Notes: generated from the letters alone by a model not told the origin. DNA of 25,189 nucleotides from Acutalibacteraceae bacterium (GCA_045533135.1 JAZSHG010000255.1:1-25189), one strand, 5' to 3'. Numbered from the stretch's first letter, positions 14,204 through 18,589 are shown. A program made the numbers and translations.

Positions 14204-14231
14204 AAAAAGGCTTACGGTGTCCGTAAGCCTT
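14204..14231 (-). terminator. Intrinsic terminator of the zinc-ribbon gene
   Basis: AAGGCTTACGG (14207-14217), TGT, CCGTAAGCCTT (14221-14231). On the minus strand the stem is followed by TTTTT. Confidence 0.8.
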
Positions 14232-14266
14232 AATTCACGCATCTTCTGTGAGAATGTTCCCCAGAA

Positions 14267-14545
14267 TTAGCCTTCCTGCTTCATAGCAGCAAAGCACTCG
14301 CTGCAGTACACAGGACGATCCTCACGGGGCTTGAAGGGAACTTTGCACTCTTTGCCGCAGTTAGCGCAAACGGCAGAATGCATCTCGCGCTCGGGCTTCG
14401 CAGCGTTCTTGCGCGCGTCACGACAAGCTTTGCAGCGCTGAGGCTCATTCACAAAGCCTTTCTCAGCATAGAACTCTTGCTCACCGGCGGTGAACACAAA
14501 TTCATTGCCACATTCTTTGCAAGTGAGAGTCTTGTCTTCGTACAT
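14267..14545 (-). CDS. Double zinc-ribbon protein (probable zinc-ribbon domain plus CxxC-x17-CxxC domain), 92 aa
   Basis: DKTLTCKECGNEFVFTAGEQEFYAEKGF.NEPQRCKACR and AVCANCGKECKVPFKP..DRPVYCSECF. RBS GAGG upstream. Confidence 0.92.
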   Translation of the reverse strand: MYEDKTLTCKECGNEFVFTAGEQEFYAEKGFVNEPQRCKACRDARKNAAKPEREMHSAVCANCGKECKVPFKPREDRPVYCSECFAAMKQEG

Positions 14546-14577
14546 GATGTTAACCTCGCTTTAGAAAAATAGTTTTT

Positions 14578-14640
14578 TGCCCATAGACGGACTCGCACCG
14601 ACATCTTTGAAATCAACGCTCTGCTTTAAGCTACCCGGGC
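14578..14640 (-). ncRNA. tRNA-like element with a truncated anticodon arm, in the 5' leader of the zinc-ribbon gene
   Basis: Minus strand GCCCGGG-TA-GCTT-AAAGCA-GAGC-G-TTG-ATTT-CAA-AGAT-GTCGG-TGCGAGT-CCGTC-TATGGGC-A. Hand fold gives an acceptor-like stem, D arm, 3-bp stub arm and T arm. No anticodon loop and no CCA. Confidence 0.65.
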
Positions 14641-14672
14641 ATATATAGCAAACGGAAACCCGTTATGCACAA

Positions 14673-15393: not shown

Positions 15394-17154
15394 TTATTTT
15401 TCTTTTAGCCTCTCAACCAACTCGGTCGAAGGCGTAACATACGCTGTTTGATTGTGGTCATAGATAACCATACCGGGGCGCGCGCCGTTTGGTTTGTGAA
15501 CATAGCGTGCCTTCGTATACTCCACAGGAACCTGCGTAGATTGGGCGGCTTTTGAATGATAAGCGGCTAAAATGGCCGCCTGCTCCACGCTCCGTTCGGG
15601 AGGCTCTTCCCCATTTGTAACAATGATCACATGTGAACCGGGAATATTTTTGGTGTGTAACCAAATATCGTTACCCTTGGCGGTCTTTAAAGTAAGCTGA
15701 TCATTTTGGACGTTGTTGCGCCCAACCAACACAAGGAACCCATCATCCGTAACAAAGCGTAGCGGTGACGTTGATGCGGTACGCTTCTGCTTGGAATTTG
15801 TGCGGATATAGCCACCAAGTTGCAATTCATAGCGCAATTCATCCACATCGTGTGCCGTTTTTGCGCGAGAAAGGGCGTCAAAAACTGAGTCTAAATAGCG
15901 TATTTCCTCCTCGCCGGCTGCGATCTGCTCGGTCAAAATGCGTTCTGCCGTCTGCGCTTTGCGATATTCCTTGTAAAATCGCTGAGCATTTTGCGACGGT
16001 GTCAAAAGCGGATCTAAGGAGATGGTCACCGTCGGACAATCGGGCTCATAGTAGTTTTCAACTTGAACAGTAGTATCGCCTTTTTTTACCCTATATATAT
16101 TTGCGTTGAGCAAATCCCCCATCAGGCGCTTTTCTTCACGTTTGGCGGAAGCGGCAAGCTCTTCGCGCTGATGCGCAAGCTTGCGGTTAACACGCTCAGT
16201 TGTCGTTACTAACACACGCAAAATATCCTGTGAGCGCTGTTTCATTCGTTCTGCGGCATCACGTTGCTCATAAAATGCATCTAATAGTGCCGAAAATCCG
16301 CCCTCTTCCCTACCTAGTGCCTCTAAACCATATTGCGTGATCGGCATAAAACTAAAATCCATCGGCGTACGATCACGACGCAACAACATATACGGCACAC
16401 GGTTTTTGCCGGTAAGCACGGCTGTTTTTACACGTCGCAATGCAAAAACAAGTCTGTCAAATCTATCGCCGATGCATTCATTTGGTGATAAATCGACACC
16501 ACGCCCGACATAATGTGCCAACTCACGGCAAATTAGCGGAGATGTGCCGTGCGAAACTGCAAGCAACGCCTTGGCAAGAGTAGGTTCTTGTGTGTGGCAC
16601 ACAGCTTGTGCCAATTCTTCCGGCTCAACGGCCGACAAATCCAAACTTCCCGGACGTACAGAAGGCAGTTCATAACGTATGCCTGGCAAAATCGGGCGCA
16701 CAGAAGACATTTCCCAGTCGACGCGCTTGATAGCGTCTACAACAATTCCTTCTTTATTGAGCAGCATAACGTTGCTGTAACGTCCCATAATCTCGATAGC
16801 AAGAGTCAGGCAAACAGCATCACCAAGCTCATTTATACAGTCGAAATCGAAGTATAATGCCCGTTCCCAGCCGTTTTGACGAATGGAAGTCAGACGGCCA
16901 CCGACTAAGTGCTTACGCAACAACATACAAAACATAGGCGGTGCAGGGGGATTTTCGGGTACACGTGTGGTGATATTGACGCGTGCAGAATTAGCCCGTG
17001 TGCAAAACAGCAGCTTGAAACTGCCATTTCGTCCGCGAAGCGATAAAATCAACTCCTCACGCGAGGGTTGATGCACTTTATCAACTTTTGTGCCTAGAAG
17101 AACTTGCTCTAATTCTTCTCGCAAGCACGCCAAATATGCACCGTCTAATGCCAT
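15394..17154 (-). CDS. rqcH: Ribosome quality-control protein RqcH (Rqc2/NEMF homolog, FbpA/NFACT family)
   Basis: MALDG..L, PPMFCMLLRKHL.GGR, EIMGRYSNV.L, D.KRL.GDLL.AN, NAQRFYKEYRK, VGRNNVQNDQLT, DIWLHTKNIPGSHV and KPNGARPGMVIY. Confidence 0.95.
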   Translation of the reverse strand: MALDGAYLACLREELEQVLLGTKVDKVHQPSREELILSLRGRNGSFKLLFCTRANSARVNITTRVPENPPAPPMFCMLLRKHLVGGRLTSIRQNGWERALYFDFDCINELGDAVCLTLAIEIMGRYSNVMLLNKEGIVVDAIKRVDWEMSSVRPILPGIRYELPSVRPGSLDLSAVEPEELAQAVCHTQEPTLAKALLAVSHGTSPLICRELAHYVGRGVDLSPNECIGDRFDRLVFALRRVKTAVLTGKNRVPYMLLRRDRTPMDFSFMPITQYGLEALGREEGGFSALLDAFYEQRDAAERMKQRSQDILRVLVTTTERVNRKLAHQREELAASAKREEKRLMGDLLNANIYRVKKGDTTVQVENYYEPDCPTVTISLDPLLTPSQNAQRFYKEYRKAQTAERILTEQIAAGEEEIRYLDSVFDALSRAKTAHDVDELRYELQLGGYIRTNSKQKRTASTSPLRFVTDDGFLVLVGRNNVQNDQLTLKTAKGNDIWLHTKNIPGSHVIIVTNGEEPPERSVEQAAILAAYHSKAAQSTQVPVEYTKARYVHKPNGARPGMVIYDHNQTAYVTPSTELVERLKEK

Positions 17155-17159
17155 TGTTA

Positions 17160-17924
17160 TTACTCCTTAGCGGTATATGCGTAAGGCTCCTCACCTTTAC
17201 AAGATAGGGTCGTTATCGAATTAAACTCGGCTTTCAAAAACGCGGCTATAGCATCCACAACGCAAACCTCGGTGGCGTGGTGACCGGCCTCAACCGCAAC
17301 CACACCGGCTTTGTTGAACGCTAACCATTCGTGGTGGCGAATTTCTCCGGAAATAACCGCATCCACCTCATTTATGAAAGCCTGCAACAAATCGCCGCCA
17401 CTACCGCCGCAAACGGCAACGCGGCTTATATCTTGGTTAGGTAGGTTAGAAACACGCACAGTAGTGTTTAAAAGTAGGGCTGTGCGATCAGCCAGCGCCT
17501 GCGTTGTATGCGGTGTCGGCAAAATTCCTATTCGGCAACATCCGTCATCGGCTGTAACGACATTTTCAAGGCCAAGCAAACCAGCTAAAACGTCATTTAC
17601 GCCACCTGCTGTTTTGTCCAAATTAGTATGCATAGAGATGACGGAAATACCGTTCTTAATTAGAATAAAAGCCCAATCTTGCTCACAAAGACTACTTATT
17701 GGTTGAAAAATCAGTGGATGATGCGTAACAATCAGCTGGACATGTTCAGAAATGGCTTTATTGATTATCTCCTGAGTGATATCTAAGCATACCAAGATTT
17801 TTTCGACACAGGCAGTTCTATCGCCAACCATCAAACCAACGTTATCCCATTCCTCTGACAGCTCAGCAGGGGCCCATTGAAACAAACGTGTTTCAATATC
17901 CTTTACAGTAGTCATCAACCTCAC
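17160..17924 (-). CDS. Nif3-like dinuclear metal center protein (YbgI/YqfO family)
   Basis: AELSEEWDNVGLMVG, LIVTHHPLIF, SMHTNLD, VAVCGGSG, GEIRHH and EAGHHATE. GTG start overlaps the trmK stop. Confidence 0.93.
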   Translation of the reverse strand: MRLMTTVKDIETRLFQWAPAELSEEWDNVGLMVGDRTACVEKILVCLDITQEIINKAISEHVQLIVTHHPLIFQPISSLCEQDWAFILIKNGISVISMHTNLDKTAGGVNDVLAGLLGLENVVTADDGCCRIGILPTPHTTQALADRTALLLNTTVRVSNLPNQDISRVAVCGGSGGDLLQAFINEVDAVISGEIRHHEWLAFNKAGVVAVEAGHHATEVCVVDAIAAFLKAEFNSITTLSCKGEEPYAYTAKE

Positions 17925-18589
17925 GACCTTTCTCGGCGCTTTTCAACAGCTTCCAACACGCTTTTTAAGTTGCGTTGCTCCACCACATTTCCGCGCAGTA
18001 TCGCGCCTTGCAAGCATTGTCTTATATGCTTACAGACACGATCCCAATAGATTGGCGGTGTATCATCGGGCAACGCACCGAAATAAAACTCTATCGCGTC
18101 ACTTACCGCAGGTGCATTCGTGTAAGCAACTTGCATGATATTGTAAAGCTTATCACCTTGACAGATGATTTCCTCATTTTCAATTATAAAACCATTGGTA
18201 AGTAAAAACTCTCGCAGTTTTTCAGAGCGCGACATAGGCTGCAATATCAAGCGATATTGTGAAGAGCGGATAAAAGAGGCATCGGAAAGTATAGAAACGA
18301 TCAACTCGCCACCCATGCCGGCAATAACGATATCGTCGACTTCGTTTGGTTTCACCACGGACAAGCCGCTTCCCAACCTCAACGTGATTTTATCTTGTAG
18401 GCCGGCTTTGACTATGTTTTGCTGTGCCACTGCCAAAGGGCTTTCATTAATATCCGCGGCTATTATGCTCTCGCAAATACCGCTTTGCATCAAATATATG
18501 GGCAAATACGCATGATCCGTGCCGATATCTGCCAAGCGGCAACCGTGACGCACACGAGAAGCAATAGCCTCCAATCGCTTATCAAGCAA
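17921..18589 (-). CDS. trmK: tRNA (adenine22-N1)-methyltransferase
   Basis: LDKRLEAIA, LADIGTDHAYLPIYL, RLGSGL, IVIAGMGGELI and LILQPM. TTG start. Sits next to the nif3-like gene, as is usual in Bacillota. Confidence 0.93.
   Translation of the reverse strand: MLDKRLEAIASRVRHGCRLADIGTDHAYLPIYLMQSGICESIIAADINESPLAVAQQNIVKAGLQDKITLRLGSGLSVVKPNEVDDIVIAGMGGELIVSILSDASFIRSSQYRLILQPMSRSEKLREFLLTNGFIIENEEIICQGDKLYNIMQVAYTNAPAVSDAIEFYFGALPDDTPPIYWDRVCKHIRQCLQGAILRGNVVEQRNLKSVLEAVEKRRERS

Follow-up and report, generated by a model that had tools for sequence, protein, structure and literature searches.

A tRNA-like element without an anticodon arm between a sigma gene and a zinc-ribbon gene in Clostridia, a putative ribonuclease P processing signal

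The module and its tRNA-like element

The 25,189-nucleotide (nt) stretch of DNA considered here, hereafter the window, comes from an Acutalibacteraceae bacterium (GCA_045533135.1 JAZSHG010000255.1:1-25189). Its minus strand carries a SigH-like sigma-70 family gene, a 63-nt element that resembles a transfer RNA (tRNA) without an anticodon arm, and a gene for a double zinc-ribbon protein with zf_Tbcl domains, in that order (Table 1). The element is examined here as a putative processing signal of ribonuclease P (RNase P). A preliminary description had folded it by hand, remarking that no CCA follows it and that it ends 32 nt before the ATG; every detail of that fold is present, and Infernal gives identical coordinates with the generic tRNA model of Rfam (RF00005). 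This match scores 33.9 bits (gathering score 29), covers model positions 1-71, and has an expectation value (E) of 0.0011 for the whole window and of 1.7e-5 for 401 nt. What is absent from the element is an anticodon arm of the canonical type, with its stem of 5 base pairs (bp), 7-nt loop and anticodon: a stub of 3-4 bp is all that is present, and in the RF00005 alignment 2 nt are left where the model has nine loop positions.

An Rfam scan of the element returned nothing besides RF00005, even at E up to 10, in agreement with the preliminary description, which had recognised no named family. ARAGORN called neither a tRNA nor a transfer-messenger RNA (tmRNA) in the window. When the tRNA model was run on the whole assembly it found 26 places, namely the 25 tRNAs of ARAGORN (45-73 bits) and the element, which scored lowest; the element thus occurs once per genome. 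The single-sequence minimum free energy of the element is not better than that of shuffled sequences (z = 0.59), and the minimum-energy fold is not the cloverleaf. Single-sequence folding is often uninformative for tRNAs. With the single-sequence energy not significant, it is the covariance-model score, and the comparative data more than anything else, that support the fold.

Table 1. Positions of the element, its parts and the surrounding features in the window (first 14 rows), and of tRNA genes at related loci (last row)
Feature	Position	Strand	Description
tRNA-like element, 63 nt	14578..14640	minus	sole Rfam match of the window, RF00005 tRNA
Acceptor helix	14634-14640 / 14579-14585	minus	GCCCGGG against TATGGGC: 4 G-C, 2 G-U, 1 G/A mismatch
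D arm	14618-14631	minus	GCTT/GAGC, loop AAAGCA; preceded by U8 A9
Anticodon stub, 3-4 bp	14607-14616	minus	TTG(A)-TT-(T)CAA
Variable region, 4 nt	14603-14606	minus	AGAT
T arm	14586-14602	minus	GTCGG/CCGTC with U-U mismatch, 7-nt loop TGCGAGT
A73	14578	minus	no CCA after it
AUAU leader, positions -4..-1	14641..14644	minus	proposed RNase P leader signature
A/U-rich linker, 32 nt	14546..14577	minus	begins AAAAA in place of CCA; ATG at 14545
Shine-Dalgarno GAGG	14554-14557	minus	inside the linker
zf_Tbcl + zf_Tbcl_2 double zinc-ribbon gene, 92 amino acids	14267..14545	minus	PF13451 (3e-25), PF23477 (1.5e-20), TIGR04272
SigH-like sigma-70 family gene, 194 amino acids	14673..15257	minus	Pfam Sigma70_r2 and r4_2
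Small hairpin	14651..14664	minus	AACGG-GTTT-CCGTT, between sigma stop codon and element; read from the sequence
Terminator-like hairpin, 10-bp stem	14204..14231	minus	AAGGCTTACG/CGTAAGCCTT and a T run; ends the unit; read from the sequence
tRNA-Gly(CCC), between sigma gene and element or zinc-ribbon gene	L183:1596-1669; L189:1887-1960; L193:1851-1924; L205:888-961; L207:1882-1955	minus; minus; minus; plus; minus	

The sigma protein finds its best NCBIfam models in those for SigH, with scores below their cut-offs, and its gene stands 32 nt ahead of the element in the window. A zinc-ribbon homologue lies downstream of the element in 175 of 175 loci examined, that of the window included, and a sigma gene lies upstream on the same strand in 30/30, in 31/35 (tblastn gave no match in the other four) and in 96/110 loci; of the 14 exceptions in the last set, five or more are cut by contig ends. 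The order of sigma gene, element and zinc-ribbon gene is kept on one strand in all 30 loci that were fetched, with sigma proteins 30-55% identical and zinc-ribbon proteins 72-96% identical. The element had at first been placed in the leader of the zinc-ribbon gene. It does precede that gene, but it is really the spacer of a three-part module, in which the gap to the sigma gene is often 0-9 nt. Across two orders of Clostridia the sigma and zf_Tbcl genes adjoin, with identities over all related loci of 29-55% versus 67-96%. It is possible that the zf_Tbcl protein is a partner of the sigma gene, either as a member of its regulon or as a partner of RNA polymerase or of the sigma factor.

From the stop codon of the upstream open reading frame to G1 of the element the median distance is 21 nt; 20/59 loci have at most 9 nt, and in two the value is negative, so that a promoter of its own would not fit into the intergenic space. 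A TATAAT that overlaps the stop codon of the sigma gene in the window is not apparent upstream in the relatives inspected. Judging from this spacing, co-transcription of the element with the upstream gene is likely. Three contigs of one metatranscriptome run continue for ~255 nt beyond what aligns, in the direction upstream of the ribosome-binding site, and these extensions are compatible with co-transcription, DNA carry-over or assembly joins being possible as well. In runs X1, X2, X3 and X5, very high word depth was seen over 14262-14558 of the window, contributed by zf_Tbcl coding parts from many relatives; this hints at strong expression of the family, contig depth being a poor measure of it.

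The linker that separates the element from the ATG is 27-39 nt long over 63 loci, is 70% A+U, and holds GAGG 7-10 nt before the ATG. It contains no terminator and no conserved helix, and the Shine-Dalgarno sequence is unpaired. A riboswitch or T-box leader was rejected on these last two features and on the lack of any aptamer-family match in Rfam.

Distribution, covariation and the wider family

In a BLAST-level search with the element and its linker, 77 of 201 genomes and 73 of 185 genera of the window's family yielded matches of ~75-89% identity. A pattern scan over 185,579 species genomes gave at least 120 loci, and the names among the loci listed are nearly all Oscillospiraceae, Acutalibacteraceae, Ruminococcaceae, Ruminococcus, Caproicibacter, Anaeromassilibacillus, Faecalispora and similar. 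Among the carriers are cultured strains, for example Faecalispora sporosphaeroides DSM 1294 (L136) and Ruminococcus sp. Marseille-P6503 (L046). For the wider search a covariance model was built from 140 distinct elements. It gave strong short matches (above 51 bits, 82-95 nt) in about 60 of the 151 sampled genomes of the window's order, which contig names suggest to be Oscillospirales, and these represent 20 or more families. In another order of the same class, Clostridia, one further family carries the element (4/5 genomes), and in the rest of the phylum it was found in 0/150 sampled genomes at E of 1e-11 or better. The decoding arm is absent in every lineage seen. One contig labelled as belonging to an 'uncultured thaumarchaeote' metagenome-assembled genome (CAKXAF010000022.1, locus L147) also holds the element and the zinc-ribbon gene, and is probably a mis-binned bacterial contig.

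The covariation analysis used 64 elements that BLAST or the model had located, and none from the pattern scan, whose pattern would fix some of the stems beforehand. They were aligned against the covariance model because a MAFFT alignment of element and linker was poor; RNAalifold on the latter gave almost no structure. The cloverleaf pairs in 85.9% of cells of the alignment, and changes on both sides are found in 14 of 20 pairs, with such pairs in all four helices. The covariation score of 0.200 compares with 0.102 ± 0.006 in shuffles and was reached by 0/500 of them, and when the partners were slid by 1-3 columns it was at most 0.065. Acceptor variants in which pairing is kept include GACC/GGTC, GGGCU/AGUCC and GAT-GAG/CTC-A-ATC. 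The check proposed in the preliminary description, conservation and covariation upstream of orthologous genes, was thus answered by both. In a subgroup from Ruminococcus and Oscillospiraceae metagenome-assembled genomes (L051, L055, L058, L066), the acceptor reads GGGCU.../...AGUCC followed by A, so that G1-C72, G2-C71, G3-U70 and A73 make up the acceptor identity set of tRNA-Ala, which may be a coincidence.

The dimensions of the fold are closely kept. Acceptor strands are 7+7 nt in 57/64 elements, the variable region is 4 nt and the T loop 7 nt in all 64, and five T-stem positions are modelled in every element, 50-64 usually being unpaired. Pair 1-72 is of a standard type in 57/63, position 3-70 is C-G in 63/63, and the D stem is 100% paired and covaries. 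Invariant among the core bases are U8, A9, A14, A21, G45, U54 and A58. Variation is found elsewhere: the anticodon stub has 3-4 bp and a loop of 0-12 nt, most often 2-3, the D loop has 5-10 nt and is usually without GG, and positions 55-57 of the T loop are free to vary. The proposal that the tRNA elbow is what has been kept did not survive, as D-loop GG, U55 and C56 are not the conserved parts. Selection, as read from this alignment, is on the acceptor/T-arm stack, the tRNA core and the T-loop motif, and not on decoding, a CCA end or the canonical elbow bases. The preliminary description's view of a functional tRNA-like structure rather than random decay is upheld by the order-wide conservation and the covariation, and comparative sequence data indicate that the element is a selected, functional structure of this kind.

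Full-length orthologues of the zinc-ribbon gene are present in 58/91 sampled genomes of the class, and 26 loci from other families were examined. Model searches found weaker, divergent elements directly upstream of the zinc-ribbon gene in about a dozen of these. At five loci from several families (L183, L189, L193, L205, L207) ARAGORN called a genuine tRNA-Gly(CCC) that immediately precedes the element or the zinc-ribbon gene, and at L183 this tRNA ends 7 nt ahead of the element. Such a neighbourhood suggests an ancestral co-transcript of tRNA and messenger RNA (mRNA) and, possibly, an origin of the mimic from tRNA-Gly(CCC). At several loci inspected by eye the element is seemingly reduced to AUAU|G, an acceptor helix of 4-6 bp and a T arm with a 7-nt loop, one central hairpin being present or absent. 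A crude scan for this minimal architecture found it at 10/26 loci as compared with 3.0 (maximum 7) in 200 shuffles, some of the first hits looking spurious. The acceptor-T-arm minihelix is the classical minimal substrate of RNase P. Constant across the series are the leader, G1, the acceptor helix, the T arm and the A-rich linker.

At five other loci, from other Clostridia families (L204, L209, L212, L213, L214), the zf_Tbcl orthologue is directly preceded on its own strand by a raiA RNA (RF03072, 171-183 bits) that ends 37-117 nt before the start codon. raiA RNA is described as abundant and trans-acting (PMC12968392), and it may be linked to zf_Tbcl.

A putative RNase P signal and its alternatives

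Immediately ahead of G1 stands a conserved AUAU: A(-4) is found in 86%, U(-3) in 86-89%, A(-2) in 91% and U(-1) in 90-94% of elements (sets of 64 and 140), G(+1) is conserved in 97-99%, and conservation of the leader ends abruptly at -5. The same four bases are the commonest leader bases of the genome's own 25 genuine tRNA genes (A 20, T 17, A 19, T 23). In high-throughput kinetic measurements type A RNase P strongly favours U at -3 and A at -2, and its RNA subunit pairs with U(-1) through A248 (PMC5602109). Enzymes were surveyed in the window's own genome (75% complete) and in four relatives (98-100% complete). Type A RNase P RNA (RF00010) scores 280 bits in the former and 256-297 bits in the latter, and the model of the type B RNA stayed below threshold in the genomes checked. 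The possibility that the conserved ATAT is instead part of a promoter was rejected on three grounds: no register of a -10 hexamer fits both A at position 2 and T at position 6, a start 7 nt downstream would delete the covarying 5' acceptor strand, and the same ATAT stands before many genuine tRNA genes of the genome.

On the 3' side the situation is different from that of a tRNA. In place of CCA the elements carry A73, A74 and A75 at 89-95% (A74 and A75 at 94-95%), and CCA is encoded in 25/25 genuine tRNA genes of the genome. No RNase Z (TIGR02651) was found above the 293-bit cut-off in the five genomes, the best score being 68 bits. One option of the preliminary description was that RNase P and RNase Z together mature the mRNA and release a small RNA similar to mascRNA. 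The RNase P half of it fares well, with an AUAU leader as in the genome's own tRNA genes and the published preference of the enzyme (PMC5602109). The RNase Z half does not, and the release of such an RNA is left without an obvious enzyme, given that no RNase Z was found and that all tRNA genes encode CCA. RNase J is present in 5/5 genomes and RNase Y in 4/5, these being the four near-complete ones.

The element has the attributes of an RNase P substrate, namely an acceptor/T-arm stack of tRNA length, a paired G(+1), a matching leader and the presence of the enzyme. On the best-supported reading it is a tRNA-derived, non-decoding RNA retained as a substrate of RNase P, which would have kept the parts that this enzyme uses and lost those needed for translation. 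It would be transcribed together with the SigH-like sigma gene upstream, in some lineages with tRNA-Gly(CCC) as the upstream partner, or alternatively from a promoter located within the last part of the sigma gene. Both read-through and such an internal start would provide a leader for RNase P to remove. The RNA of the element would adopt the L shape of a tRNA, and cleavage at the U(-1)/G(+1) junction by type A RNase P would uncouple the zinc-ribbon mRNA from the RNA upstream. The tRNA-like body probably remains on that mRNA as its 5' end, since no RNase Z was found and AAA replaces CCA; measured from G1 to the terminator, such a fused RNA would be roughly 400-430 nt long. The new 5' phosphate would then be buried in the acceptor helix ~20 nt ahead of the ribosome-binding site, as the constrained length of the linker places the structure at about this distance from the Shine-Dalgarno sequence, and a buried 5' end is expected to shield an mRNA from 5'-to-3' decay in bacteria with RNase J. 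We infer that cleavage at U(-1)/G(+1) probably takes place, and the entire scenario, in which this cut is combined with a mimic that stabilises the 5' end of the zinc-ribbon mRNA, has a somewhat better than even chance of being correct.

The small hairpin between the sigma stop codon and the element is possibly a 3' stabiliser of the sigma mRNA after cleavage, or a weak terminator. At many related loci (L003, L004, L005, L017, L024, L026, L031 and others) a short G+C-rich hairpin of the type ACGGC-loop-GCCGT is again present, 5-15 nt ahead of the AUAU leader.

Several observations weigh against this scenario. The 3' CCA is normally also paired by type A RNase P, and it is missing from the element. 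The elbow bases are poorly kept (U55 in only 18/64, C56 in 46/64, G18 and G19 not kept), and pairs 5-68 (49/63), 6-67 (27/63) and 50-64 (37/63) are usually non-standard, so that recognition could weaken. Contigs from animal gut metatranscriptomes cover the conserved coding parts of the zinc-ribbon gene only and barely touch the element, the flanks of which differ from species to species, and no ends can be read from them. The stabilising role is purely inferred. Lastly, a partnership between RNA and protein would account equally well for the strict association with the zinc-ribbon gene (175/175) and for the orthologues at which raiA RNA stands in place of the element.

The raiA RNA substitution keeps two further explanations alive. 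Perhaps the element is a stable, trans-acting small RNA similar to mascRNA, cut on both sides and possibly tailed with CCA, with the zinc-ribbon gene merely riding along. This would explain why an abundant, trans-acting RNA occupies the same position at five loci of other families (PMC12968392), and it would agree with the very strict maintenance of the tRNA core geometry and with the conservation of A73-A75. It is nevertheless unlikely, as no RNase Z exceeded the cut-off in the five genomes, as a cut within the linker, devoid of terminator and conserved structure, would remove most of the 5' untranslated region of a gene that is highly conserved, and as the elbow and the loops, usual contact surfaces for partners in trans, are the variable parts. 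The other explanation is that the element is a binding site in cis, for autoregulation by the zinc-ribbon protein or for a tRNA-binding protein, which would control translation or stability, any RNase P cut being incidental. Autoregulation was among the options of the preliminary description, as was a decoy for tRNA-binding proteins. The absolute linkage to the zinc-ribbon gene, as opposed to the looser one to the sigma gene, is what would be predicted, as is the constant distance to the Shine-Dalgarno sequence, and archaeal relatives of the protein bind zinc and have no known function (PMC12704099). Beyond the generic core nucleotides of a tRNA, however, the element offers no conserved loop or bulge, its conserved AUAU leader lies outside any such fold, and its apparent shrinkage to an acceptor-T-arm minihelix in other families, or its replacement there by a real tRNA or raiA RNA, is hard to square with one specific surface; this explanation, too, is improbable.

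A more far-reaching idea is that the zinc-ribbon protein and the structured RNA upstream of it, be it the mimic of the window's order, a reduced mimic or tRNA-Gly elsewhere, or raiA RNA in further families, form a ribonucleoprotein. This is a rather remote prospect. If true, tRNA-processing enzymes would produce the mimic, a stable trans-acting partner, under a SigH-like sigma factor, and a tRNA-like RNA and raiA RNA would be tied to one pathway of growth-phase or sporulation control. Finally, it is extremely improbable that the element is a decaying, functionless tRNA pseudogene: it is the lowest of the genome's 26 matches to the tRNA model and has neither anticodon loop nor CCA, but it is spread through 20 or more families of its order and into a family of another, its DNA keeps ~80% identity beside a sigma protein with no more than 30-55%, and compensatory changes are present in all helices. 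A recent pseudogene of one of the genome's own tRNAs is ruled out, as the best of them agrees at only 48/63 positions, generic ones, and no close donor exists, an outcome in line with the preliminary description.

As to the surroundings, the terminator-like hairpin that ends the unit was not among the output of a simple terminator scan. Before the sigma gene, at 15394-18589 on the minus strand, are genes for TrmK (tRNA m1A22 methyltransferase), NIF3 and an NFACT/RqcH-type protein, neighbours of the module that are related to tRNA and ribosome rescue. NFACT also stands beside the module at L003 and L023, with no match at other loci within the ~1.5 kilobases of flank fetched. For the zinc-ribbon protein, a PDB sequence search and the ESM Atlas yielded family names only, and no function.

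Comparison with known systems and significance

That tRNA-like folds act as RNA-processing signals is textbook knowledge for mitochondria and for the MALAT1 transcript. The t-elements of plant mitochondria, and mitochondrial tRNA punctuation in general, are similar to the element in that non-decoding tRNA-like folds within polycistronic RNA are proposed to direct cuts by RNase P (and RNase Z) that define mRNA ends. Unlike t-elements, the element is bacterial, chromosomal, single-copy and tied to one gene pair, and its putative processing is probably limited to a 5' cut. With mascRNA of MALAT1 and MEN-beta (RF01684) it shares the nature of a non-decoding tRNA mimic within a longer transcript, one that tRNA-processing enzymes recognise in the case of mascRNA and would recognise in that of the element. 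mascRNA, however, is released by RNase P and RNase Z, receives CCA and sets the 3' end of a long non-coding RNA, whereas the element is at the 5' side of an mRNA, with its anticodon arm truncated and RF00005 as its only match in Rfam.

Among bacteria, tRNA-mRNA co-transcripts are known, such as that of the E. coli tRNA genes before tufB, as are RNase P cuts in operon spacers. As in the arrangement proposed here, RNase P parts the upstream RNA from the mRNA in these co-transcripts, and some related loci carry tRNA-Gly(CCC) at the same place. Those systems use functional tRNAs or poorly conserved structures, while the element is a dedicated, conserved and decoding-dead derivative. The tRNA-like domain of tmRNA likewise combines an acceptor and a T arm without an anticodon arm and is processed by RNase P, as proposed for the element. 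It differs in having no D stem, a G3-U70 pair, CCA, charging with alanine and a tag reading frame, where the element has a covarying D arm, C-G at 3-70 and no CCA. A stabilising 5' end has parallels in the stem-loops of the aprE and ermC leaders of Firmicutes, which, like the end proposed here, place a paired 5' end near the ribosome-binding site against decay by RNase J. These are simple hairpins at primary transcript starts, whereas in the element the whole body of a tRNA would be used, with an end putatively made by RNase P.

We know of no conserved, dedicated, decoding-dead tRNA derivative that serves one bacterial mRNA, and full-text searching of the literature brought up no description of the element. 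Probably it has been missed so far because its score is just above the Rfam tRNA threshold, because filters on overlap with Rfam, used in at least one large screen, would discard it and because tRNA finders such as ARAGORN reject it. A large screen for structured RNAs of the gut microbiome discards candidates that overlap an Rfam match at gathering score (PMC8040213), a filter which would have removed the element as a 'tRNA'.

The element is widespread in abundant Clostridia of gut and rumen. Across families it forms a natural series, from a full tRNA through a cloverleaf without anticodon arm to an apparent acceptor-T-arm minihelix, which would show which parts of a tRNA processing needs in vivo. 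The zf_Tbcl proteins are highly conserved but uncharacterised, and the element gives a first way of approaching them and how they are linked with a SigH-like sigma factor and with raiA RNA.
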